32,000 nt of DNA from Nitratidesulfovibrio vulgaris str. Hildenborough (GCF_000195755.1 NC_002937.3:2460001-2492000), one strand, 5' to 3'. Shown: positions 14,950-32,000, counted from the stretch's first letter. The notes: a model not told the origin generated them from the letters alone. Translations and numbers: made by a program.

Positions 14950-15025
14950 TCCCCGGTGGCTCAATCGGCAGAGCGGGTGACTGTTAATCACTAGGTTGGC
15001 GGTTCAAGTCCGTCCCGGGGAGCCA
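14950..15025 (+). tRNA. tRNA-Asn (anticodon GTT), CCA encoded
   Basis: I folded the cloverleaf by hand. The acceptor stem is TCCCCGG/CCGGGGA and the D stem is GCTC/GAGC. The anticodon stem is GGTGA/TCACT with loop CTGTTAA, giving anticodon GTT. The T arm is GGCGG-TTCAAGT-CCGTC, with discriminator G plus CCA. The total is 76 nt. Confidence 0.92.
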
Positions 15026-15033
15026 GATGATCT

Positions 15034-15065
15034 AGGCCTGTAGTAATACAGGCCTTTTTCTTTTT
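15034..15065 (+). terminator. intrinsic terminator after tRNA-Asn
   Basis: A perfect 9-bp stem, AGGCCTGTA with TACAGGCCT, has a GTAA loop and is followed by TTTTCTTTTT. Confidence 0.85.
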
Positions 15066-15319
15066 CTGCACCACACTCCCCCCGTAGCACCCGGCAGTCT
15101 CGTCATGGGGTTGTGGGGGGACTCTCAGGTTGAGAGAATGCGTCACACAAGCTGAATACGCTCACCTCTCGACGGCCACGGGCAACGGCTGACACATTGC
15201 ACTCTCTGCATCCCCCTGAAGGCATGGCCTCGGGGGGTCTTTGCATCCTGCCCCCCTGTACACCACCGCCCGAAAAGACACTTCACGTCCGGCCGTTCCG
15301 ATACGCAGATTGCGCTTCC

Positions 15320-15337
15320 GGGATAAGACGTTATCCC
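15320..15337. promoter_or_regulatory. perfect palindrome GGGATAA-GACG-TTATCCC, a candidate dimeric-regulator operator
   Basis: The 7-bp inverted arms have a 4-nt spacer. The palindrome lies 11 nt upstream of the AT-rich hexamer array and about 110 nt upstream of the AraC-family gene. Confidence 0.4.
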
Positions 15338-15348
15338 CATGTGTGATA

Positions 15349-15379
15349 TTTTGACTTTGATTTTCACTTTCATTATTCA
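15349..15379 (+). promoter_or_regulatory. AT-rich hexamer array overlapping a candidate promoter of the AraC regulator; Fur-box-like
   Basis: The array reads TTTTGA CTTTGA TTTTCA CTTTCA, four tandem YTTTSA hexamers or two 12-mers at 10/12 identity, followed by TTATTCA. TTGACT (15351-15356) and TATTCA (15374-15379) are separated by 17 nt. Positions 15359-15377 match the classical Fur box GATAATGATAATCATTATC at 12/19. Confidence 0.45.
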
Positions 15380-15404
15380 CAAACATCGAACGACGTAACC
15401 ACTC

Positions 15405-15421
15405 GCACGACAGCGTCGTGC
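15405..15421 (+). promoter_or_regulatory. 5'-UTR hairpin upstream of the AraC regulator
   Basis: GCACGAC-agc-GTCGTGC forms a perfect 7-bp stem 28 nt upstream of the ATG at 15449. Confidence 0.3.
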
Positions 15422-15448
15422 ACCACCTCCGCTGCAGGACCACACCAC

Positions 15449-16306
15449 ATGCCGCTCATTCCCACGCCAGCCTTCCACTCTCCGCAAGCAAGGGCATCGC
15501 GCACCGCCGAGGTTCACATCACCCCCCTCCTCGACCGGCAGGGCATGTGCCTTCTTCATGTCGAAGCCCGCGCCGCACATGACGGCCTGCTCATCCAGCC
15601 GGGGACGGAAGGGGTGCTCACCTGCCTCATCCTGCACAGTGGTCCCGCACCGTATGGCGAAGGCATCACCCTCTCCAGCGGCATCGCCCGCACCATCTCG
15701 ATACTTGGCGTAGACAGGGCCCTGTGCCCCGACCTTGCCGACATGCCGCCGGTACTCACCGTGCTGGCAAGCCCCTCGGTGCTGCTTTCATTGCAGGCAT
15801 GGCATACGGGCGCCCATGATGGCATGTCGCCCACTCGTGCGGCCGCCCGCCTCCTCGACCTCTTGGCCTCCGTCGTGGAGACCGCCCGCTGCGAAGACGA
15901 AGACATGCCCCCGGAACATCGCGCCGCGCACATCCTCGCCACGCATCTCGCGTCGCCTCCGCCCATCGACGACCTCGCCCGCATATGCCGCACCAGCAGG
16001 GCGACGCTGGCCCGCAGGTTCAGGGCCACCTACGGTACCACCATGCGTGAATACCTGCGGCTTCGCAGGCTAGAAGCGGCCTATCGCCTTCTCGAACGAG
16101 AAGGGGTCTCGGTGACGGATGCCGCCTACGCCGTCGGCTACGAGAGTCTGCCCTCGTTCTCGCGCGCCTTCCACGAACACTACGGCAAGGCCCCGGTCAT
16201 CGTGCGCAACAGGGTGCCTACATACGTTCCGCCTGCCCCCGTGGGGTATGTCTGCCGCCTTCACGACAGTCGCCCCCCATCCCCCGTTCACGACATCCAC
16301 GACTGA
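15449..16306 (+). CDS. AraC/XylS-family transcriptional regulator
   Basis: The 285-aa product has a C-terminal double helix-turn-helix (IDDLARICRTSRATLARRFRATYGTTMREYLRLRRLEAAYRLL ... VTDAAYAVGYESLPSFSRAFHEHYGKAP). I could not assign the ~180-aa N-terminal domain to a family. Confidence 0.85.
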   Translation: MPLIPTPAFHSPQARASRTAEVHITPLLDRQGMCLLHVEARAAHDGLLIQPGTEGVLTCLILHSGPAPYGEGITLSSGIARTISILGVDRALCPDLADMPPVLTVLASPSVLLSLQAWHTGAHDGMSPTRAAARLLDLLASVVETARCEDEDMPPEHRAAHILATHLASPPPIDDLARICRTSRATLARRFRATYGTTMREYLRLRRLEAAYRLLEREGVSVTDAAYAVGYESLPSFSRAFHEHYGKAPVIVRNRVPTYVPPAPVGYVCRLHDSRPPSPVHDIHD

Positions 16307-16430
16307 CAACGTCGTCCTGTTTTCCGGGGTTCGCCCCGCCACCATAACCCCCGCCCGCCGGGAGGTCTTCGACGACGCCCGAAGGCGACACGAGACCCCA
16401 CGACGCGGGCAGCCTGCAAGGTGACACCTC

Positions 16431-19400
16431 ATGTCCATGAAACACTCCTCGATGCGTACAGGCGGGACGGCGGCCCTTGCCGCCCTTCTCTGCCTCACAG
16501 GTGGATGCCTGCGCGACAGGGCGCCATCGGCACCACCTGCACTGGTCGCCCCCGCTGAATCCACTGCCGTTCCCTATGGCTGGTATGACGGCCGGTGGCC
16601 GCATGAACGCCCGCTGCCCCCCCACGAACGCCTCCTGCCACACGACAGCGCACGCTTCGGACGGCTGGCAAACGGGTTGCGGTACGTCATCGTCCCCAAC
16701 GCCAAACCGGAAGGACGAGTGAGTCTGCATCTCGACGTACAGGCTGGGTCGCTCATGGAGACTGACGAACAACGCGGACTGGCGCACTTCGTCGAACACA
16801 TGGCCTTCAACGGGTCGCGCAATTTCGCACCCGGCACGCTCATCCCCTTTCTGCAGCACAACGGCATGGCCTTCGGGGCCGACGCCAACGCCCATACCAG
16901 CACGGCAGAGACCGTCTACAAACTCGACCTGCCTACCGCCGACACTGCGACCATCGAAAAAGGGTTGCTCATCCTGCGGGATGTGGCCGACGGGCTGCTC
17001 ATCCTGCCTGAAGAGGTCGAGAAGGAACGCGGCGTCATCCTCGCCGAGAAGCTGGCGCGGGATAACCGCAGAAGTCGCGCGGGCAAGGCCCTGCGAGACG
17101 TCCTCTATGCCGATAGCCGCTACGCCTTCGAGACCATCGGCCTCGAGGATGTCGTGCGCCATGCCCGCCCCGAGACGCTGCGCGCCTTCTACGACACATG
17201 GTACCGCCCCGAACGCATGGTGCTTGTGGCTGTGGGGGCCGTCACCCCCGCCGACCTCGCGACCATGGTCGAACGTCACTTCGCTGATGTGAAGGCGCGC
17301 ACCGGCGCACCGGTCATGCCCGCGCCCGGCAACGTCAGGCACGAAGGCGTACACGCAAGCTACGACCCGGAGACGGGAGGCGGCGTGACGGTGAGCGTCA
17401 CCGCCATGCACACGGCGCGAACCGAGGTCGACTCCATGAGCCTGCAACGCCGCAGACTGGCAGAGGCCGTCGCCACCAGCGCGTTCCAGAAGCGGTTGCT
17501 GCGCCTCGCCTCCACGCCCGGTGCGCCCGTCCTTGGCGGTCATATGGCCATGCCCGTCGGTTTCGAGATGTTCGAGACCGCCACCATCACCATGCGTGCC
17601 CGTGGCGAAGACTGGCGCAACGCGCTGACGACCGCAGAGACGGAACTGCGCCGGGCCCTCGAACACGGCTTCACGCAAGACGAGTTCGAGAACGCGCGAC
17701 GCGTGTGCGAGGGGCTTTTCACCACCATGCGCCGTGAGAAGGCCAATCGCACCAACAGCGACATCGCCGCAGAGGCCGTGGCCTGCTTCAACGCCGACAG
17801 GGTGTTCCAGTCCACAGACCAGACCTGCGACCTCTACCTGAACATGCTCTCCAGCCTCACCCGAGGCGAGGTCGAAGAGGCATTCCGCCGCCGCTGGGAC
17901 ACAGGCAACAGGATGTTGCACCTCTCCGGCATGGCAGGCGTGGAGAACGCCCCGGCGCGCCTTGTCGAGGCGTGGGCCGAGAGTACCGCACACGCTGTCG
18001 AAGCACCGCGTGACAGCGTCGCTACGGCCTTCCCCTACCTTGCCGAACCCACCCTGCCCGCGCTCGTGTTGCACGACTCCTCGCGCCAGTTGCCGGAAGG
18101 CCCGGCCCTTCGCACCGTACGCCTCGACAACGGCCTCACCCTGCACATGGCCGTCACGCCCTACGAGAAGGGACGCTTCAGCCTTTCGCTGTTCCACGGT
18201 GACGGGCTGGACGGTCTGGACGATGCGACCTACGCGGTGGCACGCGCCACCGAACGCACCCTCCGTGAAGAGGGAGTGGGACGTCTCTCGCGCGAGGCCA
18301 CACGCGACCATCTCGGCTGGAGGCATGTGAAGGTGGAGACGGACTACCGCGACGACGCCTTCACCATCAACGCCAGCGGCCCCGGTGAGGAACTCGACGC
18401 CGTCACCGCCGCCCTGTGGACGCAATACACCGACCCCACCCCCACGAAGGCAGGACGGGCGCGGGCCATAGAGGGACTTGAAGCAGGCAGGGACGAACGC
18501 GAGAACACCGTCGAAGGCGTTGCCCCTCACCGCATTCGCGCCTTCCTCTACGGCGACGCCCGCCGCACCGCACCTCTTGACGGCCGGGATGTGGCCCGTG
18601 TGCCGCTCGACGCCATGAGCGACTTCGCCCTTGCCCGCACGTCCACGCCTCCTCGCACCATCGTGGCAGTGGGAGACTTCGACCCCGAACGTCTCATCGA
18701 ACGGGTGCGCCATCTCTTCGCCATGCCAGCACCCGTGCCTGCCTCCCACGAGGCACCGCATGAGGCCATCCGCTTCCCCGCCGGGGCACGGCGCACCGTC
18801 GAAGTGGCCGACCCCGATGGCAAAGCGCACCTCGTGGTGGCGTGGCGGCATGACCTTGAGGACGAATCAGACCAGCGCGCGCTGGCCATCCGCCACCTGA
18901 CAGCATCATGGCTCAACGAAGTGCTGCGCGAAGAGGTGCGAGAGGCCATCGGCGCCTCATACTCCCCCTCCGGGCGCTATCGCCATGACCAGGAACGCGG
19001 GGGCTTCGGCACCTATGTCGCCTCGATTCGCACCGATGCGGCACTGGTCGACAAGGTACGGCGGGCCGTGCGCGAGGCGGCCCAAGGGCTGGCGAAGGGC
19101 GAAGTGCCCCCCGGCACGGCTGCGCGCCTGCGCGCACCGGTACTCAACGCCATCACCAAGGCCCGCGACTCGAACACCTACTGGCAGCGCATCATCGAAG
19201 CCGAAGTCCTGCGCGGCAGACCGGCGGCCCGCCATGCCGAAGCCTTCGCCAAGGCACTGGGCACCGTCACCGATGCCGACATCGCTGCGGAAGCACGCGC
19301 CGTCTTCGCCACAAGAAGTGCCGAACTCGCCATCACGGGCAAGGCACCTGCGACAAAGCCCGGCGGCAAACCCTCCAAGGCTGCGGTCTCCCGAAAGATA

Positions 19401-19448
19401 CCCGCCGGGACCACAACCGAAGAAACAGCCCAAGGAGTAGCCCGATGA
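16431..19448 (+). CDS. exported M16-family zinc metalloprotease, PqqL/FusC-like (double M16 unit, ~1000 aa), possible lipoprotein
   Basis: The inverted zinc motif HFVEH is at 16785-16799, with the downstream NAHTSTAETVY glutamate region. The signal peptide ends LTGGC, which is lipobox-like. The size and repeated M16 active and inactive halves match PqqL-type enzymes. Confidence 0.9.
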   Translation: MSMKHSSMRTGGTAALAALLCLTGGCLRDRAPSAPPALVAPAESTAVPYGWYDGRWPHERPLPPHERLLPHDSARFGRLANGLRYVIVPNAKPEGRVSLHLDVQAGSLMETDEQRGLAHFVEHMAFNGSRNFAPGTLIPFLQHNGMAFGADANAHTSTAETVYKLDLPTADTATIEKGLLILRDVADGLLILPEEVEKERGVILAEKLARDNRRSRAGKALRDVLYADSRYAFETIGLEDVVRHARPETLRAFYDTWYRPERMVLVAVGAVTPADLATMVERHFADVKARTGAPVMPAPGNVRHEGVHASYDPETGGGVTVSVTAMHTARTEVDSMSLQRRRLAEAVATSAFQKRLLRLASTPGAPVLGGHMAMPVGFEMFETATITMRARGEDWRNALTTAETELRRALEHGFTQDEFENARRVCEGLFTTMRREKANRTNSDIAAEAVACFNADRVFQSTDQTCDLYLNMLSSLTRGEVEEAFRRRWDTGNRMLHLSGMAGVENAPARLVEAWAESTAHAVEAPRDSVATAFPYLAEPTLPALVLHDSSRQLPEGPALRTVRLDNGLTLHMAVTPYEKGRFSLSLFHGDGLDGLDDATYAVARATERTLREEGVGRLSREATRDHLGWRHVKVETDYRDDAFTINASGPGEELDAVTAALWTQYTDPTPTKAGRARAIEGLEAGRDERENTVEGVAPHRIRAFLYGDARRTAPLDGRDVARVPLDAMSDFALARTSTPPRTIVAVGDFDPERLIERVRHLFAMPAPVPASHEAPHEAIRFPAGARRTVEVADPDGKAHLVVAWRHDLEDESDQRALAIRHLTASWLNEVLREEVREAIGASYSPSGRYRHDQERGGFGTYVASIRTDAALVDKVRRAVREAAQGLAKGEVPPGTAARLRAPVLNAITKARDSNTYWQRIIEAEVLRGRPAARHAEAFAKALGTVTDADIAAEARAVFATRSAELAITGKAPATKPGGKPSKAAVSRKIPAGTTTEETAQGVAR
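16599..16640 (+). repeat. imperfect 21-nt tandem duplication encoding PHERPLP/PHERLLP
   Basis: CCGCATGAACGCCCGCTGCCC and CCCCACGAACGCCTCCTGCCA match at 16/21, in frame, just after the M16 signal peptide. Confidence 0.7.
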
Positions 19449-20350
19449 GCGGCACGACGATGATCGAATGCCGGGGCCTGCGCCACGACTACGGCGAACG
19501 CCCCGTGCTGCACGGGCTGGACTTCACAGTGGAAGAGGGCGGGGTGTTCGGCCTTCTGGGCCGCAACGGCGCGGGAAAGAGCACCACCATCAACATCCTC
19601 ATGGGATTCCTGCGTCCCACGGGCGGACAATGCAGCGTGTTGGGTGCACCCAGCCATGCCCTGCCCCCTGCCGTCCGTGCTGACATCGGCCTGCTGCACG
19701 AGGGGTTCATCCAGTACGACTTCATGACCATCGCCGAACTCGAACGCTTCCATGCGCCGTTCTATCCCCGGTGGGACAGTGGCGTGCTGCGCGAAGTGGT
19801 GGAACGCCTCGACCTGCCCATGGGCAGACGCCTTGGCCGCATGTCATGCGGTCAGCGGGCACAGGTGGTGCTGGGACTCATCATGGCCCAGAATCCGCGC
19901 CTCATGCTGCTGGACGACTACTCCATGGGGCTGGACGTGGGCTATCGCAGGCAGTTCATCGACATGCTGCGCGCCTACGTCCGCGAACGCGGCACCACCG
20001 TACTGCTCACCTCCCATGTTGTGCAGGAACTCGACCGCCTCGTGGACAGGATGGTCGTGCTGCAACGGGGCAGGGTCGCAGCCGACTGCACCAGAGCCCT
20101 GTTCATGGAGACCTACCGCCGCTACCGGCTGCCACTCTCCGAAGCCGTCCTGCGCCTTGTCCCCGACGGCATCATCCTCGACACCGACGACGATGCGGAA
20201 GGCGTGACGCTCTTCGCCGCAGCCGCCCCGGAGAGGATGCGCTCACATCTCGCATCGCTGGGCATCGCCTGCGATGCACTCACCGACGTGGCCCTCACCT
20301 TCGAGGACGCCTTCGTAGCCCTCACCACGGCCCGCCGTCTGCCCGCATGA
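19445..20350 (+). CDS. ABC transporter ATP-binding protein (ABC-2 type) with atypical Walker B
   Basis: The product has Walker A GRNGAGKST, signature MSCGQRAQV, Walker B LMLLDDYS (Asp where the catalytic Glu is expected) and H-loop LTSH. The ATGA overlaps the M16 stop, with AAGGAG 7 nt upstream. Confidence 0.9.
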   Translation: MSGTTMIECRGLRHDYGERPVLHGLDFTVEEGGVFGLLGRNGAGKSTTINILMGFLRPTGGQCSVLGAPSHALPPAVRADIGLLHEGFIQYDFMTIAELERFHAPFYPRWDSGVLREVVERLDLPMGRRLGRMSCGQRAQVVLGLIMAQNPRLMLLDDYSMGLDVGYRRQFIDMLRAYVRERGTTVLLTSHVVQELDRLVDRMVVLQRGRVAADCTRALFMETYRRYRLPLSEAVLRLVPDGIILDTDDDAEGVTLFAAAAPERMRSHLASLGIACDALTDVALTFEDAFVALTTARRLPA

Positions 20351-20367
20351 CAAGGAGAAAGCCCCCC

Positions 20368-21036
20368 ATGCTGCGCGCACTTCTCTACAAGGAATGGATC
20401 AAACTCCGCTACGCGGGATGGCTGGCCCCTGCCGCCATCCTTCTCGGACTGGGCGATGCGTGGCTCAAACTGCGCGGCGTCCGCAACAACCACGGCCCTG
20501 TCGACCTCTGGAACATGCTGCTCTTCAAACAGACCATCTTCTTCGAGACCCTGCTACTGACTCTGCCCCTCGCGGGCGTATGGCTTGCCGCCGTACAGTA
20601 TCGCCCCGAATGCGCGGGCAGACGCCTGCGCCTCGCCCTGCACCTGCCCGTGCCCCATCGCACGGCCCTCTACGCCCCGGCGGCGGTGGGCCTTGCGCTG
20701 CTCACGCTGGCGGGCGGGCTGGCACTGGGCGGTTTCGCCCTCATCCTCTGCGTTTACGGAATGCCCGCCGAACTTGCCGCGCCCATCGTCCGCACGGCAC
20801 TGCCCGCGTTGCTGGCGGGGCATGTGGCCTACTTCGCCACCGCCGCCGCACTGGCTGACACCCGCATGATTCGCCGTTGCGTCATCGGCTGCGCCGGTCT
20901 CGCCTACGCACTGCTGTTGCTGAAGACCTACGGCTACGACGCCATGACGGGCAGCCTCGGCTGGTACGCGCTGGCGTCCCTGCCATGGATTCTGCCGCTG
21001 GAGGCCGCCGCGCTGCGCCTCAAGGAGGGAGCATGA
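20368..21036 (+). CDS. polytopic membrane protein, ABC-2-type permease-like
   Basis: The ATG at 20368 is preceded by AAGGAG. An alternative in-frame ATG at 20347 overlaps the ATPase stop. The N-terminus LRALLYKEWIKLR is typical of ABC-2 permeases. There are about 6 hydrophobic segments and GC3-rich codons. Confidence 0.7.
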   Translation: MLRALLYKEWIKLRYAGWLAPAAILLGLGDAWLKLRGVRNNHGPVDLWNMLLFKQTIFFETLLLTLPLAGVWLAAVQYRPECAGRRLRLALHLPVPHRTALYAPAAVGLALLTLAGGLALGGFALILCVYGMPAELAAPIVRTALPALLAGHVAYFATAAALADTRMIRRCVIGCAGLAYALLLLKTYGYDAMTGSLGWYALASLPWILPLEAAALRLKEGA

Positions 21037-22397
21037 CACTCTCACCCGCCCGCCTCGCCTGCGCGGTGGTCACCGCCATGTCGCTTTTCTGGTTCATCCC
21101 CGATGTGTACCGCCGTGCCACCAACCCCGAAAAAGTCAGGGCCACCGCCTACTACAGCGCGGTGGAAGAACGCTTCATGGTGCGCACCGACACCTTCACG
21201 GGCGCAGGCTATGCCGACGAGTCCGGCAACCCGCTGGAAGCCCCGGCCTTCAAGGAACGGCTGCCTTTCCTGTATTTTGCCGAACTTGAGAAGCAGGGTC
21301 GCTTTCCCGCCACCGTTGCCGGAGTGCCCGTGACGGCGCAGGATGCGCGCAACGCCCTGCAGACGGTGCAACTCTCGCCGCGCATGTGGAACCTGCCGAA
21401 GATGCCGCTCAATGTGCTGCTGGACGCAGCCCCCGCCGGGGCGCACCTCTCGCTGCCGCCCGACATCTTCCGCATCACGGGTACCGGACTCGACTTCATC
21501 CGCTGCGCCGACGGCAGCCTCGACACCGCCAAGACCGCCAGATTCGCCGAAGCCCTGCGCACAGCGGACGTGCGCTTCCCGTTGCGCGGCCTCGGGTCGA
21601 ACCCCAACCCGCTCAAGCCCTTCGACGAAGGCTGCCTGCTGGTGGACGCCGAAGGCCGCGTGTTCAGACTCGCCATGCACAAGGGCGAACCCCGGTGCAG
21701 GGCAACGGGCCTCGCCATCGACGGCGAAGTGAAGGCCATCACCGTCGAGGAACACCCCCGCCGCGCCTTCGTGGGCACCATCGTCACCGGCGATGCCGTA
21801 CACCTCGTCACCTACGACGACACGCTGGTGAGGCTGCCGCTGGAAGGCTTCGACGCGGCAGGCAGTTACGCCGTGCTGCGTAGCGACCCGCTCAATGTCA
21901 CCCTCGCCTCCGCCGACCTGCGCGACCGTCTCACGCAGCCCACGCGCTACATCGCCACAGACGCACAGTACAACCCGGTGCACACCTTCGACCTGTACTT
22001 CCCCGCTGAGGCCAGAAGCCGCATCGAAGCCGCGCAGATTGCCGGGTCGGAGCTTTCTCCGCTGGCCTTGCGACAATTCGCCCCTGAAGAAGGTCGTGTG
22101 CTCTTCCGCATGGAACCCGCCGCATCGCTGCCTCTCGCCGCACTGGGCTGCGCACTATCGGTCGCCCTCCTCGTGCTGGTGCGCAGGCGCACTCGCACAG
22201 GTCTGCACTGGGGCGAGACACTCTTCGTCGCCGCGACGGGACTGCCGGGCCTTGCCGGGGTGCTGGTCTTCGGCCCGCTGGCGACCCCGAGTGAAAGCCT
22301 CACCCTTGGCAAGAACACGCCCACTGACGATGGACCCGAGAGACTGAACGGGTTCAAGAAGACGGGCTGCGCCTCCTGCTGTAGCGGCAACAAATGA
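21033..22397 (+). CDS. membrane protein of unknown family with a large extracytoplasmic domain and a Cys-rich C-terminal tail
   Basis: I trimmed ORF 20877..22397 to the ATG at 21033, which forms an ATGA overlap and follows AAGGAGGGAGC. The 454-aa product has one N-terminal TM and a ~370-aa soluble region. Two C-terminal TMs are separated by RRRTRT, and the tail ends GCASCCSGNK. Confidence 0.7.
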   Translation: MTLSPARLACAVVTAMSLFWFIPDVYRRATNPEKVRATAYYSAVEERFMVRTDTFTGAGYADESGNPLEAPAFKERLPFLYFAELEKQGRFPATVAGVPVTAQDARNALQTVQLSPRMWNLPKMPLNVLLDAAPAGAHLSLPPDIFRITGTGLDFIRCADGSLDTAKTARFAEALRTADVRFPLRGLGSNPNPLKPFDEGCLLVDAEGRVFRLAMHKGEPRCRATGLAIDGEVKAITVEEHPRRAFVGTIVTGDAVHLVTYDDTLVRLPLEGFDAAGSYAVLRSDPLNVTLASADLRDRLTQPTRYIATDAQYNPVHTFDLYFPAEARSRIEAAQIAGSELSPLALRQFAPEEGRVLFRMEPAASLPLAALGCALSVALLVLVRRRTRTGLHWGETLFVAATGLPGLAGVLVFGPLATPSESLTLGKNTPTDDGPERLNGFKKTGCASCCSGNK

Positions 22398-22429
22398 GAA
22401 TGAAATCCCATATCGTGAGGAGGCATCGA

Positions 22430-25057: not shown

Positions 25058-25068
25058 TGTTTACAGCC

Positions 25069-25094
25069 GTGCCGCGCCCGAAAGGGCGCGGCAC
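25069..25094 (+). promoter_or_regulatory. intercistronic stem-loop with a GAAA tetraloop and no U-tract
   Basis: GTGCCGCGCCC-GAAA-GGGCGCGGCAC forms a perfect 11-bp stem. It lies in the 52-nt gap between the receptor stop and the SBP start. Confidence 0.7.
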
Positions 25095-25109
25095 CCCGGA
25101 GACTGCCTC

Positions 25110-27029
25110 ATGTCCGCCCTGCCGCGCCTGCACCCTCGCGCCCACGTATTCAGCGGCCTCACCGCCCTCATGTTATGTCTCGCCACCGCCATCGCCCCCG
25201 CCATGGCGGGTGTCCGCACACATGCCCTCACCCTTGCCGGGGCCGTACCCGCACTCTCAACGGGCTTCGCACACATGCCGCATGTGAACCCCGAGGCACC
25301 CAAGGGAGGCACATTGCGCCTTGGCGTCATCGGCGGCTTCGACAGCCTGCATCCCTTCATCATGCGTGGCATCCCCGCCGCACAACTGGGGCTGACCTAC
25401 GAGACGCTGGGCGAGACCGTACCCGGTGAGGACGGCGTCATCTACGGCCTGCTGGCCGAGAGTTTCGAAGAGTCCGCAGACGGCGGGCATCTGGTTTGCC
25501 ACCTCGCACCCGCGGCACGCTTCGCCGACGGGCACCCCGTCACCGCCGCCGACGTGGTCTTCTCGTTCGAGATGCTCACCCGCCACGGGTCGCCCTTCTA
25601 CCGGGACTACTACGCCGGGGTCGGCACCGTGACCGCGGTGGACGCCCGCACCGTGCGCTTCGACTTCACATCGCGCCACAACGCCGAACTTCCCTACATC
25701 GTGGCCCAGTTGCCCGTGCTGCCCCGTCACTGGTGGCAGGGGCGCGACTTCACCGCACCGCAAGCCGAAGCCGCACCGGGCAGCGGCCCGTACCGCGTAC
25801 GCGAGGCACGCCCCGGTTCAGGCATCACCTACGAACGCGTTCCGGGATGGTGGGGGGCGAAGCTTCCCATCAACAGGGGCCGCTACAATTTCGACGTCAT
25901 CCGCTGCGACTACTACCGCGACACCACCGTGGCACGGCAGGCGTTCCTCGCCGGAGAGTTCGACCTGTGGAACGAGAACACCATCAAGGACTGGTTCGCC
26001 TCGTACGACGTGCCCTCCGTCCGCGAAGGGCGCATCACCCGCGAGGAGATTCCCCACGGCAGGCCCGAGGGCATGGGCGGCTTCGTCTTCAACACGCGCC
26101 GTGCCATCTTCGCCGACGTGCGCGTCCGCCGTGCCCTTGCCATGTGCTTCGACTTCGAATGGACGAACCGCGCCCTCTTCCACGACGCCTACAGACGTTA
26201 CGACAGCTTCTTCTCCAATTCTCCGTTCGCAGCCACCGGCACCGCCACCGAAGGCGAACGCGCCCTGCTGCGCGAAGTGTCCCCCGAAAGGGCCGCCATG
26301 CTCTCCGGCCCCCCCCCTCTGCCCGCCACGCACGACGGCAGCGGCGACATCCGCCCCGTCCTGCGCGACGCCCTGCGCCTGATGCACGACGCGGGCTGGA
26401 ACCTGCGCGACGGACGCCTTGTCGATGCCTCGGGCAGGCCCTTCAGGTTCACGCTGCTGCTCTCGTCCAAAGGTCTGGAACGCGTGGTGCTGCCCTTCAG
26501 ACGCAACCTCTCGCGCCTCGGCGTGGAGATGGATGTGCAGGTGGTCGACCAGACGCAGTACGTCTCACGGGTGCGTGCCTTCGACTACGACATGGTGCAT
26601 GCCACCATGCGCCAGTCGTCGAATCCCGGTAACGAACAGCGTGCCTTCTGGACGACGGCGGCAGCGGACGCACCGGGGTCGCGCAACTACGCGGGCGTGC
26701 GCGATACCGCCGTCGACGCACTGGTCGAACGCATCATCGCCGCACGCGACGCCGCCACCCTGCGCGACGCCGTCCACGCCCTCGACCGGGTGCTGCTGCA
26801 CGAGCACTACGTCGTCCCCGGCTGGTACAGCGACAGGCAACGCATGGCCTACTGGAAGACCCGCGTGGCGCACCCCGCCTTCACCCCGCGTGGGGGCATC
26901 GACCTGCACTCGTGGTGGGCCGTATCCGGCGATGACACGCAGGCCAAGGGTGTTCCGGCCAAGCCGGCACAGGGCGACGGTACTCAGGCTGATGCGGCCC
27001 GCAGCACACCCGCAACGGAGACACGCTGA
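25110..27029 (+). CDS. yejA: ABC transporter periplasmic substrate-binding protein, family 5 (YejA-like)
   Basis: I trimmed ORF 25011..27029 to the ATG at 25110, with GGAG 8 nt upstream. The product has a signal peptide ending PAMAG. It shows a family-5 SBP pattern (KGGTLRLGVIGGFDSLHPF, GSGPYRV) and precedes yejB, yejE and yejF. Confidence 0.85.
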   Translation: MSALPRLHPRAHVFSGLTALMLCLATAIAPAMAGVRTHALTLAGAVPALSTGFAHMPHVNPEAPKGGTLRLGVIGGFDSLHPFIMRGIPAAQLGLTYETLGETVPGEDGVIYGLLAESFEESADGGHLVCHLAPAARFADGHPVTAADVVFSFEMLTRHGSPFYRDYYAGVGTVTAVDARTVRFDFTSRHNAELPYIVAQLPVLPRHWWQGRDFTAPQAEAAPGSGPYRVREARPGSGITYERVPGWWGAKLPINRGRYNFDVIRCDYYRDTTVARQAFLAGEFDLWNENTIKDWFASYDVPSVREGRITREEIPHGRPEGMGGFVFNTRRAIFADVRVRRALAMCFDFEWTNRALFHDAYRRYDSFFSNSPFAATGTATEGERALLREVSPERAAMLSGPPPLPATHDGSGDIRPVLRDALRLMHDAGWNLRDGRLVDASGRPFRFTLLLSSKGLERVVLPFRRNLSRLGVEMDVQVVDQTQYVSRVRAFDYDMVHATMRQSSNPGNEQRAFWTTAAADAPGSRNYAGVRDTAVDALVERIIAARDAATLRDAVHALDRVLLHEHYVVPGWYSDRQRMAYWKTRVAHPAFTPRGGIDLHSWWAVSGDDTQAKGVPAKPAQGDGTQADAARSTPATETR

Positions 27030-28150
27030 TGCGCGCCCGACAGTCATCCCACGGCGGGGCATGGGGCTACATGCTGCGCCGCCTGCTGCTGGTGCTGCCC
27101 ACGCTTCTCGGCATCGTCACGATCAACTTCTTCGTGGTGCAACTGGCCCCCGGCGGCCCGGTGGAACAGTATATCGCCCGTCTCGAAGGTGATGGCGCCG
27201 CCTACATGGAACGCATCGGCGCAGGTGATGGCGGCGACATGCAGCCCGCAGCCGACGACGGGACAGCCGCCTACAAGGGGGCGGCAGGACTCAGCCCGCA
27301 GGCTGTGGAGGCCATCCGCCGACAGTACGGCTTCGACCGCCCCATCCTCGAACGCTACGTCACCATGCTGGGCGACTTCGCCCTGTTCAGGTTCGGCGAC
27401 AGCCTCTTCAAGGGGCGCAGCGTCATCGACCTCGTAGGTGACGCCATGCCCGTATCGCTGTCGCTGGGACTCTGGAGCACCCTCGTCATCTATGCCGTCT
27501 CCATCCCGCTGGGCATGGCGCGTGCGCTACGTCGCGGCAGCCGATTCGACACCATGAGCGGCATCGCCGTCATCGCGGCACACGCCATCCCCGCCTTTCT
27601 GCTGGCGGTGCTGCTCATCGTGCTCTTCGCCGGGGGCAGCTACCTGCAATGGTTCCCGCTGCGGGGGCTGGTGTCGCCGGGGCACGACGCGCTGCCTTTC
27701 GGGGCACGGGTGCTCGACTATGCGCACCACATGGTGCTGCCCGTGACCGCCATGGTCGTGGGCGGCTTCGCGGGGCTGACCAGCCTGACGCGCAACGCCT
27801 TTCTCGACGAACTCGGCAAGGCCTATGTGGAGACGGCCCTCGCCAAGGGCCTCACGCGCAAGGCCGTGTTGTGGCGGCACGTCTTCCGCAACGCCATGCT
27901 GCTGGTCATCAGCGGGCTTCCCGGTGCCTTCGTGCGGGTGTTCTTCACCGGTTCGCTGCTCATCGAGACCATCTTCTCGCTCAACGGTCTCGGACTCATG
28001 GGGTTCGAAGCCGCCATGCAGCGCGACTACCCTGTCATGTTCGCCTCTCTCTATGTCTTCACGCTCATCGGTCTGACGGCATCCCTTGCCGGAGACATGC
28101 TCTGCATGGCCGTTGACCCGCGCATCGACTTCGAAAGGAGGGCGGCATGA
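27029..28150 (+). CDS. yejB: peptide ABC transporter permease
   Basis: RRLLLVLPTLLGIVTINFFVVQLAPGGPVEQ closely parallels the E. coli YejB N-terminus. The start overlaps the SBP stop (TGATG), with GGAG 8 nt upstream. ATG 27071 is an alternative. Confidence 0.88.
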   Translation: MRARQSSHGGAWGYMLRRLLLVLPTLLGIVTINFFVVQLAPGGPVEQYIARLEGDGAAYMERIGAGDGGDMQPAADDGTAAYKGAAGLSPQAVEAIRRQYGFDRPILERYVTMLGDFALFRFGDSLFKGRSVIDLVGDAMPVSLSLGLWSTLVIYAVSIPLGMARALRRGSRFDTMSGIAVIAAHAIPAFLLAVLLIVLFAGGSYLQWFPLRGLVSPGHDALPFGARVLDYAHHMVLPVTAMVVGGFAGLTSLTRNAFLDELGKAYVETALAKGLTRKAVLWRHVFRNAMLLVISGLPGAFVRVFFTGSLLIETIFSLNGLGLMGFEAAMQRDYPVMFASLYVFTLIGLTASLAGDMLCMAVDPRIDFERRAA

Positions 28151-29178
28151 CCACCGCACAACGACGCTGGAACGCCTTTCGGCGCAACGGGCGGGCGTGG
28201 TGGTCGCTGGTGTTCTTCGTCACACTGTTCTGCCTGAGCCTCTGCGCCGAAATCATCGCCAACGACAGACCCCTGCTGGTGATGGTGCATGGCAGGCTGC
28301 ACTCTCCGGTGCTGCACGACTACACCGAACGCGACTTCGGCGGCGAATTCGACACCCCCGCCGATTTCCGCGACCCGCTGCTCACCGCCTACATCGATGC
28401 CCACGGCTGGGCACTCTGGCCCCCGGTGCGCTTCGCCGACGCCACCATCAACTACGACGCCCCCGCCGTGCCCGCCCCGCCCGGTGGCGGCAACTGGCTG
28501 GGCACCGACGACCAGGGGCGCGACATCCTCGCACGGCTTCTGTACGGCTTCAGGCTTTCGGTACTGTTCGGGCTGGCACTCACCCTTGCCGGGTCGGTGA
28601 CGGGCATCGCAGCCGGGGCGGTCATGGGCTACCGGGGTGGAAGGCTCGACCTCTTCGGCCAGAGGATACTGGAGATATGGTCGGGTATTCCCGTGCTCTA
28701 CCTGCTCATGCTGGTGGGCAGCATGTTCCGCATGACGTTCTGGACACTACTCGGGGTGATGCTGCTCTTCGGGTGGATGCGCCTCGTGCCCGCGGTGCGC
28801 ACCGAGTTCCTGCGAGGGCGCAACCTCGACCACGTGCGGGCGGCACGCGCCCTTGGCGTACCCCAATGGCGCATCATGCTGCGCCACGTGCTGCCCAATG
28901 CCATGGTCGCCGTCGTCACCTTCCTGCCTTTTCAGTTGAACGGTTCCATCGTGGCACTCACGTCGCTCGACTTTCTCGGCTTCGGCCTGCCGCCGGGGTA
29001 TCCGTCACTCGGTGAACTGGTGGCGCAGGGACGCGCCAACCTCCACGCCCCGTGGATAGGATGCTCGGTCTTCGGGCTGCTTGGCGGCACCCTGATGCTT
29101 CTCGTCTTCATCGGTGAAGGCGTGCGCGACGCGCTCGACCCTTCGGTGACAAACCCCGCCCCCTCCCCACGGAGATGA
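28147..29178 (+). CDS. yejE: peptide ABC transporter permease
   Basis: The product is collinear with E. coli YejE. Matching motifs are RWNAFRRNGRAWWSL, NWLGTDDQGRDILARLLYGFR, LRHVLPNAMVA and LDFLGFGLPPGYPSLGEL. The start is an ATGA overlap preceded by AAGGAGG. Confidence 0.9.
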   Translation: MTTAQRRWNAFRRNGRAWWSLVFFVTLFCLSLCAEIIANDRPLLVMVHGRLHSPVLHDYTERDFGGEFDTPADFRDPLLTAYIDAHGWALWPPVRFADATINYDAPAVPAPPGGGNWLGTDDQGRDILARLLYGFRLSVLFGLALTLAGSVTGIAAGAVMGYRGGRLDLFGQRILEIWSGIPVLYLLMLVGSMFRMTFWTLLGVMLLFGWMRLVPAVRTEFLRGRNLDHVRAARALGVPQWRIMLRHVLPNAMVAVVTFLPFQLNGSIVALTSLDFLGFGLPPGYPSLGELVAQGRANLHAPWIGCSVFGLLGGTLMLLVFIGEGVRDALDPSVTNPAPSPRR

Positions 29179-30962
29179 CCACCATGACCCACGACCTTCT
29201 GCATATCGAAGACCTGCACCTCGCCTTCGGCGGGAGTGCCCATCCCCCTGCCGCGTCGGGCCGCGCCGTCCTGCACGGTGTGGGCCTCACCATGCGCCGG
29301 GGAGAGATACACGCACTGGTGGGCGCCAGCGGTTCGGGCAAATCGCTCACGGCAAGGGCCGTCCTCGGACTGCTGCCTCCCGGCGCACGCCTGACCCACG
29401 GCAACATCCGCTTCGAGGGGGCGCAACTGGCCCATGCTCCCGAATCCGCCCTGCGTGCCCTGCGGGGCGACCGCATCGGCATGGTCTTCCAGGACCCGCT
29501 TTCGAGCCTCAACCCCCTGCACACCATAGAACGGCAAGTGGCTGAACCGCTGGCCATCCACAAGGGCATACGCGGCCCCCGTGCACGGGCGCGGGCACTT
29601 GAACTGCTCGACATGGTGGGACTCGACGAACCTGAGGCACGACTCGCCAGCTACCCGCACCAGCTTTCGGGCGGGCAGAGGCAACGCGTGGCCCTTGCCA
29701 TGGCACTGGCCAACGACCCGGCACTGCTCATCGCCGACGAACCCACCACGGCCCTCGACACCACGGTGCAGAGCCAGATACTGCGCCTCATCGACACCCT
29801 GAGGCACCGTCTCGGCATGGGCGTCCTCATCGTCAGCCACGACCTCGGCGTGGTCCGCAGCCTTGCCGATGTCATCCATGTCATGGACGCCGGGTGCATC
29901 GTGGAGAGTGCCCCGACGACGCGCATCTTCTCCGCCCCCGCCTCGCCGGTGACCCGCGCGCTTCTCGGGGCCGAAGGCCCCTCCGGGCCCGCCCCGCTGC
30001 CAGAGACCACGGCGACTCAACCCGCCCTGCTTGAAGCCCGCGACATGGGAGTGACCTTCACACGCCAGAGGGGTCTCTTCGGTCTGCGCAAGACCGGGCA
30101 TGACGCCCTCGTCTCGGCCTCGTTCACGCTACGGCGCGGGGAGTGCCTCGGCGTGGTGGGTGAAAGCGGTTCCGGCAAGAGTACGCTGGCCCTCGCCGTA
30201 TTACGGCTCATCGCCTCGCGTGGCCGCGTGACGCTGGACGGTCAGCGACTCGACACGCTGGACGAAGAAGCCCTGCGCCCGCTGCGCCGCAAGGTGCAGG
30301 CCGTCTTTCAAGACCCCTTCTCCGCACTCAACCCCCGCATGACCGTGGCCGAAAGCATCGCCGAGGGGCTGACGACCCACTTCCCCGACCTGCGTGGAAG
30401 GCAGGGCCTCAAGGCCATGCACGACAAGACGCTCGCCGCCCTTGATGAAGTGGGACTCTCCGACGACTTCATGCAACGCTACCCGGGCGAACTCTCGGGG
30501 GGGCAATGCCAGCGGGTGGTCATCGCACGGGCACTGGCCCTGCGCCCCGAGGTTCTCGTGCTGGATGAACCCACCTCATCGCTCGACCGCGCCCTTCAGT
30601 TTCAGGTGGTGGCCCTGCTGCGCGACCTGCAACTCCGGCATGGCATGGCCTGCCTCTTCATCACCCACGACCTTTCTCTGGTGCGCAGCTTCTGCCACCG
30701 TGTGATGGTGCTCCACCGTGGGCATGTGGTCGAGGCCGGCCCCACGCCCGTGGTACTCGACGCCCCTGCCACCGCCACCACGAGGGCACTGGTCGAGGCT
30801 GCACTCGGCTGTGCACCGGCATCTGCCTCCGGCCTGTCCGCCGCGACAGCCGAGCCTACCGGCCTCATGGTCGGACGTCCCCGCTTTGCGGAGATGACAC
30901 CGGCACACGACGCCGCCACCCCATCAAACAGACGACCGCGTTCCGACGCGGCAGGAGCCTGA
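29175..30962 (+). CDS. yejF: peptide ABC transporter, fused double ATP-binding protein
   Basis: The product has two complete nucleotide-binding domains, with GASGSGKS / LSGGQRQR / LLIADEPTTALD and GESGSGKS / LSGGQCQR / VLVLDEPTSSLD. A ~50-aa low-complexity C-terminal tail follows. An alternative ATG is at 29184. Confidence 0.9.
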   Translation: MTTMTHDLLHIEDLHLAFGGSAHPPAASGRAVLHGVGLTMRRGEIHALVGASGSGKSLTARAVLGLLPPGARLTHGNIRFEGAQLAHAPESALRALRGDRIGMVFQDPLSSLNPLHTIERQVAEPLAIHKGIRGPRARARALELLDMVGLDEPEARLASYPHQLSGGQRQRVALAMALANDPALLIADEPTTALDTTVQSQILRLIDTLRHRLGMGVLIVSHDLGVVRSLADVIHVMDAGCIVESAPTTRIFSAPASPVTRALLGAEGPSGPAPLPETTATQPALLEARDMGVTFTRQRGLFGLRKTGHDALVSASFTLRRGECLGVVGESGSGKSTLALAVLRLIASRGRVTLDGQRLDTLDEEALRPLRRKVQAVFQDPFSALNPRMTVAESIAEGLTTHFPDLRGRQGLKAMHDKTLAALDEVGLSDDFMQRYPGELSGGQCQRVVIARALALRPEVLVLDEPTSSLDRALQFQVVALLRDLQLRHGMACLFITHDLSLVRSFCHRVMVLHRGHVVEAGPTPVVLDAPATATTRALVEAALGCAPASASGLSAATAEPTGLMVGRPRFAEMTPAHDAATPSNRRPRSDAAGA

Positions 30963-30965
30963 TTC

Positions 30966-31919
30966 ATGGAAATCATCGAACTCTACTCCCACGCCACTCC
31001 TGTGGCACGTGCGGTCATGGCGGTGCTGGTGGTCATGTCCGTGGTCAGCTGGTCCATCATCGTCCGCAAGGCCCTGCTCTTCCGCAGCATCGAAGGACGT
31101 CTCGACGGGGCCATACACCGGCTTGAAGCGTGTGACGGCATCGCCGAGGCCATGTCGCGTTTCAAGGGCCATGCCGACAACACCGTGTGGCATCTGCTGC
31201 GTACCGGCTACCGAGAGTACATGCGGCTGCTGCCCCGCCGCGCCCCGGCTGAGGTCATCGCCGACAACGTGCGCCGGGCCATGCGCCACGCCGTCGCGGA
31301 AGAGACAGGACGCCTCGGTTCGCAACTGCCCCTGCTTGCCACCACTGCCAACACCGCCCCGTTCATCGGTCTCTTCGGCACTGTATGGGGCATCATGGAT
31401 GCGTTCCACAAACTGGCGGGGGCCAAGACAGCGGCCATCGCCTCTGTCGCACCCGGCATCTCTGAAGCACTCATCGCCACGGCTGTGGGTCTTGGCGTCG
31501 CCATTCCCGCGGCCATCGGCTACAACCTGCACATGACCCGCGTGCGCCGTGTTCAGGCACGGCTCATCAGCCTTGCGGGACTCACCCTCAACACCATCAT
31601 GCTCGAAACCGCCCCACTGCCTGCTGCGGAAAACGGAAAACCAACGGCCACTGACGGGGCCGAAGCCCCCGCCACGGCACGAAGGCACGACGCGGCATCC
31701 CTGACGCCCGCACAGCCCGTCACGTCGGACACGACAGACGCAGCCCTTGCTGTGAGCGGGGGTAACGGAACGGGCGGGACCGCGGGGTCGAGCGTGTGCA
31801 GCCCCTCCATCGAGACCGGAAGCTTGGCGGCACCAGCGTCACAGAAGGTCGTAGCGGGGCAGGTGCCATTGCACGCCGTGCGCGGCGGAAAGGAAGGGCG
31901 TGATGCATCTCTCGCCTGA
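30966..31919 (+). CDS. exbB: MotA/TolQ/ExbB-family proton channel with a ~100-aa low-complexity C-terminal tail
   Basis: The conserved core includes LLATTANTAPFIGLFGTVWGIMDAF and APGISEALIATAVGLGVAIPA. AGGAG lies 8 nt upstream. The TonB-receptor operon context favours ExbB over TolQ. Confidence 0.85.
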   Translation: MEIIELYSHATPVARAVMAVLVVMSVVSWSIIVRKALLFRSIEGRLDGAIHRLEACDGIAEAMSRFKGHADNTVWHLLRTGYREYMRLLPRRAPAEVIADNVRRAMRHAVAEETGRLGSQLPLLATTANTAPFIGLFGTVWGIMDAFHKLAGAKTAAIASVAPGISEALIATAVGLGVAIPAAIGYNLHMTRVRRVQARLISLAGLTLNTIMLETAPLPAAENGKPTATDGAEAPATARRHDAASLTPAQPVTSDTTDAALAVSGGNGTGGTAGSSVCSPSIETGSLAAPASQKVVAGQVPLHAVRGGKEGRDASLA

Positions 31920-32000
31920 TGACGACGGTGTCGTCTCCGAAATCAACGTCACGCCGTTCGTGGACGTGATGCTGGTGTTGCTGGTCATCTTCATGGTCAC
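31903..32000 (+). CDS. exbD: ExbD/TolR-family protein, N-terminal fragment running off the window
   Basis: This is not in the ORF track. My translation from the ATG at 31903 is MHLSPDDDGVVSEINVTPFVDVMLVLLVIFMV, the hallmark ExbD/TolR N-terminus and TM. It overlaps the exbB end by 17 nt, with AAGGAAGGG upstream. Confidence 0.8.
   Translation, partial: MHLSPDDDGVVSEINVTPFVDVMLVLLVIFMV

Follow-up and report, generated by a model that had tools for sequence, protein, structure and literature searches.

By what means do sulfate reducers gain iron once free Fe(II) has been stripped away by sulfide? The question is raised by a gene cluster of Nitratidesulfovibrio vulgaris str. Hildenborough. The cluster lies in a stretch of 32,000 nucleotides (NC_002937.3:2460001-2492000), referred to here as the window, from whose first letter all coordinates are counted. 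An AraC-family regulator gene (15449-16306), called foxR in an earlier study (PMC545781), is followed by eleven coding sequences on the same (plus) strand that run to the window edge, and all of these open reading frames are present where a first-pass annotation, made from the sequence alone, had placed them. Counting the contigs with identical genes that supply the remainder of ExbD as well as TonB, the whole unit is made of the AraC gene and twelve further genes. These encode an M16 protease, an ATP-binding cassette (ABC) ATPase with a small permease and a DUF4857 membrane protein, a TonB-dependent transporter, the four components of a YejABEF importer, and ExbB, ExbD, and TonB.

What might such a set of genes import? 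The first-pass annotation read it as a protease-associated import system of a kind not seen before. The class assignment is reasonable by homology, given the FusA/YddB-like transporter, the PqqL/FusC-like protease with its export signal, the ExbB-ExbD-TonB genes, the Fur boxes, and the co-conservation of the parts, but the novelty was overstated. We lean, with no great confidence, toward an import system of the Fus / YddB-PqqL class that draws its energy from TonB and is induced by iron starvation. When iron is low, Fur would leave the promoter or promoters, and FoxR, probably sensing the imported product, would raise expression. The transporter, powered by its own ExbB-ExbD-TonB, would import an iron-bearing protein or a large peptide, which the M16 protease would cleave in the periplasm, and YejABEF would move the peptide products into the cytoplasm, perhaps together with the bound cofactor. 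As an older and more widely conserved inner-membrane partner of the transporter family, the ATPase-permease-DUF4857 complex would handle the released metal or cofactor, or help to extract the cargo. Protease-associated import has one characterised example, the piracy of plant ferredoxin by Pectobacterium, and the cargo of the E. coli system is still unknown. With a well-conserved version under Fur control in an anaerobe that is open to genetics and has barcoded transposon libraries, there is a second organism in which to look for cargo.

The gene arrangement is far beyond chance; it recurs in six other Desulfovibrionaceae loci. One genome per species was scanned with the transporter alignment as query, giving 78 loci (numbered below with the prefix L) whose open reading frames were compared with the thirteen cluster proteins. 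The full set M16-ATPase-permease-DUF4857-transporter-YejABEF is found in L007, L012, L013, L019, and L062, which are Nitratidesulfovibrio sp. HK-II and four Desulfovibrio-type metagenome-assembled genomes (MAGs), and it is kept in a rearranged form in a Desulfobaculum locus (L008). The HK-II locus additionally carries the AraC gene and ExbBD-TonB. Transporter identity drops to 33% among these full-set loci, and the joint conservation of M16, transporter, Yej, and Exb parts on which the annotation's reading depended is indeed found in related Desulfovibrionaceae genomes.

The outer-membrane transporter and the M16 protease

The gene at 22430-25057 was annotated as that of a TonB-dependent receptor, an identity that PDB sequences and fold bear out while Pfam stays silent. 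Its product (887 residues, or 875 from the gene-caller start at 22430) has no Pfam or NCBIfam match, even at E 10. A phmmer search of the PDB returns FusA (4ZGV, E 5.7e-73 over residues 94-874) and YddB (6OFR, E 6e-44), and no other PDB relative. In the AlphaFold2 (AF2) model, whose mean predicted local distance difference test score (pLDDT) is 71, residues 1-101 are disordered and the rest comprises a plug region and a long beta-barrel. The alignments used for structure prediction were shallow because the word-indexed homologue searches gave only 12, 6, and 9 matches. Foldseek searches with this model again retrieve FusA (E 8.5e-58; template-modelling (TM) scores 0.74/0.80) and YddB (E 5.8e-51; TM 0.71/0.82), the next best being PfeA (E 8e-28, TM 0.55). 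The fold matches to FusA and YddB thus beat those to siderophore, heme, B12, and SusC transporters by more than 20 orders of magnitude in E and by 0.2 TM units. Homologues of the transporter bear the Plug domain PF07715, and its own sequence terminates in ...FKYTF, with a C-terminal aromatic residue; plug in barrel, it has the make-up of the TonB-dependent superfamily. Sequence and model together point to a clear FusA/YddB-family TonB-dependent outer-membrane transporter. There is a lesson here for annotation, as FusA-type transporters slip past the Pfam models for TonB receptors.

The disordered N-terminal extension, of about 100 residues, contains repeated N-A-T / N-T-T sequons (ANTTKPGAANATLP) at residues ~25-100 (window 22502-22730). 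Sequons likewise occur in orthologues, with ENATNRNATMRNGTLHNAT in L007, QNATKD...TNATEQ in L008, and further examples in L062. A PglB-type N-glycosylation system exists in some Desulfovibrio species, and the sequons could be candidate sites of periplasmic N-glycosylation.

The protease gene (16431-19448) encodes Peptidase_M16 and M16_C domains. As annotated, the product has a signal peptide and an intact zinc site, with HFVEH at residues 119-123 and E206 within ERGVILAE (199-206). Its PDB sequence matches are led by PqqL (6OFS, E 4.6e-44) and FusC (6B03, E 9e-27), other M16 proteins lying at about 1e-17, and the spacing of 83 from the histidine motif to the distal glutamate equals that of PqqL. 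The signal peptide ends in a lipobox, LTGGC, which is LAAC or LAGC in orthologues, and an export signal is present in every M16 orthologue examined. The protease is therefore predicted to be exported, and it is probably a lipid-anchored lipoprotein. An exported single-chain M16 protein of the FusC/PqqL type, with its HxxEH...E site intact, is thus encoded beside the transporter, as is typical of the class. Directly after the signal peptide, at residues ~48-58 (window 16560-16600), stands a motif W-Y/L-D-G-x-W-P/A-H-E, which is kept in the orthologues of L007, L008, L019, and L062 and absent from PqqL in the aligned region.

Two ABC systems and the ExbB-ExbD-TonB genes

The annotation's claim of a complete YejA/B/E/F-type importer holds in that all four components are present, YejB alone exceeding its NCBIfam cut-off. 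The family-5 substrate-binding protein (SBP; 25110-27029) matches SBP_bac_5 (E 1e-59) and, in the PDB, 7Z8E (E 8e-134), MbnE (5ICQ, E 3e-121), and YejA (E 7e-113). The YejB permease (27029-28150) scores 492 bits against NF011712, whose cut-off is 445, and the YejE permease (28147-29178) reaches 432.6 bits against a cut-off of 439 for NF011596. The double ATPase YejF (29184-30962, alternative start 29175) contains two ABC_tran domains and scores 607 bits (E 2e-182) with NF011713, whose cut-off is 834.

The SBP brings in a different reading, in which the cargo is a small molecule, either a (xeno)siderophore or a metallophore derived from a peptide. The chelate would then be imported by YejABEF and sensed by FoxR, with the M16 protease either breaking down a peptidic chelator or having a minor part. 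This was the proposal made in 2004 for this very locus, whose AraC regulator is Fur-controlled as in siderophore systems (PMC545781). The SBP is as near to MbnE as to YejA, and has weak NCBIfam matches to NikA and CntA, which bind metal chelates. With methanobactin uptake by MbnT/MbnE the cluster shares the pairing of a TonB-dependent transporter with a YejA-family SBP, but MbnT/MbnE lack an M16 protease, there are no methanobactin genes here, and MbnT is, to our knowledge, not a FusA-type transporter. Nor does the transporter fit, since it groups with FusA/YddB, far from all siderophore receptors of known structure, and an M16 gene lies beside this transporter family in 18 of the 49 loci that have at least 5 kb on both sides. 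Moreover, the authors of the 2004 proposal could find no pathway for making siderophores in these genomes (PMC545781). We consider small-molecule uptake unlikely, while giving it a serious place among the alternatives.

Energy for the transporter would come from the ExbB/TolQ-family proton-channel subunit (30966-31919) and its partners. ExbB matches MotA_ExbB (E 1.9e-33), both the TolQ and the ExbB models scoring under their cut-offs. ExbD/TolR (31903-32000) is cut by the window edge, and its N-terminus matches the ExbD profile with E 3.6e-6 on 32 residues. A TonB gene had been expected just past this edge, and it is there: on the contigs with identical genes (L001 and L085), ExbD has 137 residues and TonB, with a TonB_C domain, 302. 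Past its MotA_ExbB domain, ExbB has a C-terminal tail of ~115 residues (31572-31919) that is of low complexity and rich in Ala, Thr, Gly, and Pro, and the last 17 nucleotides of the ExbB gene are shared with the start of the ExbD gene.

The second ABC system is encoded between the protease and transporter genes. Its ATPase (19445-20350) is of the ABC-2 (DrrA/NodI-like) type, with a match to ABC_tran (E 2e-19) and a best NCBIfam match, drrA (E 3.6e-38), that is below cut-off. The small polytopic permease (20368-21036, 222 residues) matches ABC2_membrane_4 at E 6e-3, below the Pfam cut-off, so its ABC-2 assignment is weak. The 454-residue membrane protein (21033-22397), which the annotation could place in no family, belongs to DUF4857 (PF16149, E 5.5e-79). 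This is a small family, with 559 representatives among 1.84 billion, and the protein has no sequence relative in the PDB. Its AF2 model (pLDDT 78) begins with a transmembrane helix, continues with a beta-rich, beta-propeller-like domain at 36-362 that is predicted to be periplasmic, and closes with three putative transmembrane helices; Foldseek returns generic beta-propellers alone (TM about 0.2), among which no functional analogue can be named. Roughly one in ten of the best DUF4857 matches are permease-DUF4857 fusions of ~660 residues. Residues 1-210 of the fusion are 34% identical to the window permease (E 3e-25), and the remainder is 35% identical to DUF4857 (E 3e-55); the same fusion is found as a single open reading frame in several loci. 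Since natural fusion proteins exist, permease and DUF4857 are predicted to form one membrane complex with the ATPase.

This module had been called an orphan, a description that does not hold: it is a recurrent partner of the transporter family in several phyla. ATPase, permease, and DUF4857 are encoded together in 20 loci from Desulfobacterota, Campylobacterota, Chlorobiota, and Verrucomicrobiota and in two from Alphaproteobacteria. In B. thetaiotaomicron, the genes for DUF4857, a neighbouring hypothetical protein, and an ABC ATPase lie beside a TonB-dependent receptor gene, and they are induced 37-128-fold on iron depletion (PMC10434189). In the literature searched, the association of DUF4857 with the transporter is not described. 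As a tentative proposal, ATPase-permease-DUF4857 may be the dedicated inner-membrane machine of FusA-type importers, replacing FusD/YddA in at least five phyla. Its beta-propeller-like domain might capture or pull the cargo, or the complex might import the released iron cofactor, and in Desulfovibrionaceae it would have been joined with the M16 lipoprotein and YejABEF in one Fur-controlled line. If this were true, a sulfate reducer living in sulfidic water, with its free iron precipitated, could scavenge protein-bound iron, for instance from the Fe-S or heme proteins of dead cells. DUF4857 in any event gains a concrete and testable context, being iron-regulated and TonB-linked, with natural fusions and an iron-induced Bacteroides relative.

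Relatives of the cluster and the nature of the cargo

Among the 49 loci with sufficient flanks, the DUF4857 module occurs in 14 and Yej in 6. All six Yej loci also have M16 and DUF4857, and all are from Desulfovibrionaceae. The confinement of Yej to M16-containing loci modestly backs the Yej step of the proposed route. A compact ATPase-permease-DUF4857-transporter unit without M16 or Yej is found in Campylobacteraceae, Chlorobium, an Opitutaceae MAG, and Halodesulfovibrio, and in one Campylobacteraceae locus the four genes lie between groEL and a Crp-like regulator. A Magnetospirillum locus carries transporter-M16-ATPase-permease-DUF4857 with ExbB-ExbD-TonB alongside; compared with the window, M16 is 49% and DUF4857 54% identical, but the transporter just 24%.

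The Alphaproteobacterium Rhodocista pekingensis (L087 3110-5100) has the four-gene unit directly beside ChuX/HutX and radical S-adenosylmethionine (radical-SAM) genes, with extracytoplasmic function (ECF) sigma and FecR genes upstream, ExbBD-TonB also in the locus, and a cytochrome c peroxidase gene nearby. The radical-SAM gene possibly encodes an anaerobic heme degrader of the ChuW/HutW type. This neighbourhood would suit another explanation, in which heme is taken up, either free or as part of a protein (a c-type cytochrome released by lysed neighbours, for example). The protease would liberate it, and import would fall to one or other of the two ABC systems; family-5 SBP importers are able to carry heme. 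But this lead comes from a single locus, the other 78 loci have no ChuX or radical-SAM homologue, and the window contains no heme-utilisation gene. Heme acquisition therefore appears improbable.

How does the cluster compare with described systems? The annotation supposed that no characterised system combined all these parts. Yet Rodionov et al. published the locus in 2004: they described a foxR-pqqL-atpX...exbB-exbD-tonB cluster under Fur regulation, both in D. vulgaris and in D. desulfuricans G20 (now D. alaskensis), and proposed that it takes up siderophores (PMC545781). That cluster (DVU2378-DVU2390) has the same order of AraC, Zn peptidase, ABC components, exbB, exbD, and tonB, and identical Fur boxes; the 2004 account recognised neither the FusA-type receptor nor the PqqL/FusC link nor DUF4857 (PMC545781). 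Deltaproteobacterial homologues of FusA appear in S1 Table of the survey by Grinter et al. (2019), along with a "Desulfomicrobium" cluster (PMC6793856). The locus, its Fur control, and the class of system are thus already known.

With FusA-FusB-FusC-FusD of Pectobacterium the cluster shares a FusA-family transporter, a FusC-like exported M16 protease, a dedicated TonB-family protein, and the link to iron. It differs in having no FusD-type ABC protein but YejABEF, ATPase-permease-DUF4857, and its own ExbB-ExbD; its protease is a predicted lipoprotein, its TonB has only generic C-terminal TonB similarity, and its host is a free-living anaerobe rather than a plant pathogen. With yddA-yddB-pqqL of E. 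coli, which is iron-regulated and has no known cargo (PMC6793856), it shares YddB (26% identity over 824 residues, E 1e-49) and PqqL, which is 30% identical in the catalytic half (E 6e-44) and spaces its HFVEH...E residues identically. Missing from the E. coli cluster are a Yej importer, DUF4857, ExbBD-TonB, and an AraC regulator. BT3625-BT3633 of B. thetaiotaomicron shares DUF4857, the neighbouring hypothetical protein, the ABC ATPase, the TonB-dependent receptor gene, and induction by iron depletion, but it encodes neither M16 nor Yej and adds PepSY reductase-like proteins and DUF4876 lid lipoproteins. Relative to the described members of the class, the new features read from the sequence are two other ABC systems instead of FusD/YddA, a predicted lipoprotein protease, a dedicated ExbBD-TonB and AraC regulator, and a probable double Fur control.

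Several points weigh against the import of an iron-bearing protein or large peptide by a Fus / YddB-PqqL type system. What AraC regulators like FoxR/PchR/YbtA sense is usually a small siderophore, and among the structures closest to the SBP is MbnE, a protein tied to the uptake of a small chelator made from a peptide. Most ABC-2-type transporters export, so import by the DUF4857 module is not the default. The co-occurrence with Yej comes from a single bacterial family and is only weakly independent evidence. There is no FusD/YddA counterpart: a tblastn search of the window, extended downstream, with E. coli YddA as query is empty, and blastp finds nucleotide-binding domain motifs in YejF only, while YddA homologues adjoin the transporter in Proteus, Klebsiella, Yersinia, and Phytopseudomonas loci. 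The internal Fur site described below scores only 15.8 bits in this window. In LB with limited iron, YddB/PqqL of E. coli showed no growth phenotype (PMC6793856), and the literature searched gives no characterised substrate for DVU2378-2390 or for DUF4857.

Fur control, gene order, and boundaries

Is the cluster under iron control, and is it one unit? A Fur weight matrix was built from 38 published Desulfovibrio FUR sites, excluding the two foxR-pqqL sites (training median 23.7 bits). The top two sites in the 32 kb are the overlapping 17-bp boxes TTGACTTTGATTTTCAC and TTGATTTTCACTTTCAT, which start at 15351 and 15357 and score 25.4 and 25.6 bits; no other site in the window reaches ~25 bits. 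They occupy 15351-15373, 76-98 nucleotides upstream of the AraC ATG, placing a Fur operator at the promoter, and they match letter for letter the published D. vulgaris foxR-pqqL-atpX sites (PMC545781). The regulator itself contains HTH_18 (E 1.6e-20) and HTH_AraC (E 6.4e-15) domains at residues 163-254; its N-terminal ~160 residues match no family, and NCBIfam matches are at the level of the helix-turn-helix only. Its start is ambiguous, the gene callers placing it at 15449 (285 residues), whereas the published Fur-site offsets of -195 and -189 agree with 15545 (253 residues; PMC545781). Neither start has a good Shine-Dalgarno (SD) sequence.

A third site, at 22394-22410, scores 15.8 bits and lies in the 32-nucleotide spacer before the transporter gene; it is the sole other site of at least 14 bits in the window. 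Equivalent sites of 16.6-25.4 bits stand 27-36 nucleotides upstream of the transporter ATG in L007, L019, L062, and L020, a short Halodesulfovibrio contig, and in L008 a Fur-like site of 19.2 bits lies 105 nucleotides upstream. Counting the window, five of eight Desulfovibrionaceae loci have a site of at least 15.8 bits at the 27-36 nucleotide position, and six of eight if L008 is added. Weak matches at the transporter start of L012 and L013 were discounted, being the MKKKL codons themselves. Since sites of at least 14 bits occur at just ~0.13 per kb across these sequences, the clustering before the transporter gene is unlikely to be due to chance, with the caveat of kinship among the loci and of the AT richness of intergenic DNA. 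The site before the transporter gene is thus a probable second Fur-controlled entry point, and what was taken for a single transcript may be two co-regulated units. In all six full-set loci (L007, L008, L012, L013, L019, L062), Fur-like sites are found upstream of the M16, exbB, AraC, or transporter gene. At the level of sequence, the case that the cluster is under iron control is strong, and the published regulon prediction likewise places foxR-pqqL-atpX under Fur (PMC545781).

The possible internal operator, or promoter, also suits the view that the cluster is a mosaic in which a Yej peptide importer, an ABC-2 exporter, and a TonB system are merely adjacent and have unrelated functions. The modules do occur separately in other phyla, and ABC-2 systems usually export. 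Yet the junctions overlap or nearly touch: recomputed, they are 124 nucleotides between AraC and M16, then -4, +17, -4, +32, +52, -1, -4, -4, +3, and -17, in agreement with the annotation. A scan of the coding strand finds no convincing intrinsic terminator inside the cluster, the set survives rearrangement in L008, and every candidate promoter has a Fur-like site. Co-expression has been reported as well, DVU2378-2390 being handled as one co-expressed operon in expression studies (PMC5686539). A chance assembly of unrelated functions is, on these grounds, very improbable. The annotation's single coupled unit stands as far as the overlapping and near-touching junctions go, but two or more Fur-controlled units are possible in view of the internal site. 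Its GGAG-type SD before each start is seen for ten of eleven (AGGAG or GGAG type), the M16 start having only AAGGTG. Gene-caller starts for the SBP and YejF are 25110 and 29184, the latter with GGAG 9 nucleotides upstream. The profile searches that the annotation had proposed confirm the routine assignments (AraC, M16, ABC ATPase, SBP, YejB/E/F, ExbB/ExbD), the transporter excepted. A consensus promoter scan was uninformative (2 matches against 1.4 expected), and an Rfam search of the window found a tRNA alone. Just past the AraC stop, within the spacer before M16, a weak hairpin with a T-rich tract (16299-16315) could attenuate read-through from the regulator into the structural genes.

Upstream, the cluster is bounded by a tRNA-Asn gene (14950-15025) and a strong terminator (15034-15055), the only convincing one found. 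Past the tRNA, the other strand carries a block of genes for envelope biogenesis that is unrelated to the cluster and includes lysS-like and lolCD-like genes, bamA, skp, lpxD, lpxA, and lpxI. From 15300 to 32000 the G+C content is 0.65-0.69, against 0.59-0.64 in the upstream block, and GC skew is negative throughout. The M16 and DUF4857 relatives in Alphaproteobacteria are 48-54% identical to those of the window, and the adjacent transporters only 24-25%. Because of the G+C content and skew, the tRNA-Asn adjacency, and the high M16/DUF4857 but low transporter identity, these sequences suggest horizontal transfer of an M16-ABC-DUF4857 cassette together with transporter swapping. Long antisense open reading frames, one of 877 residues opposite the M16 gene (16218-18851, minus strand) and several of more than 300 residues, are unlikely to be genes, and are stop-poor frames typical of DNA with 65-68% G+C. 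Past TonB and outside the window (L085 13093-15754), a gap of 837 bp is followed by a gene for a CesT/SicP-like type III secretion chaperone; the same segment encodes a 698-residue protein without family match, an odd pairing for a Desulfovibrio genome.

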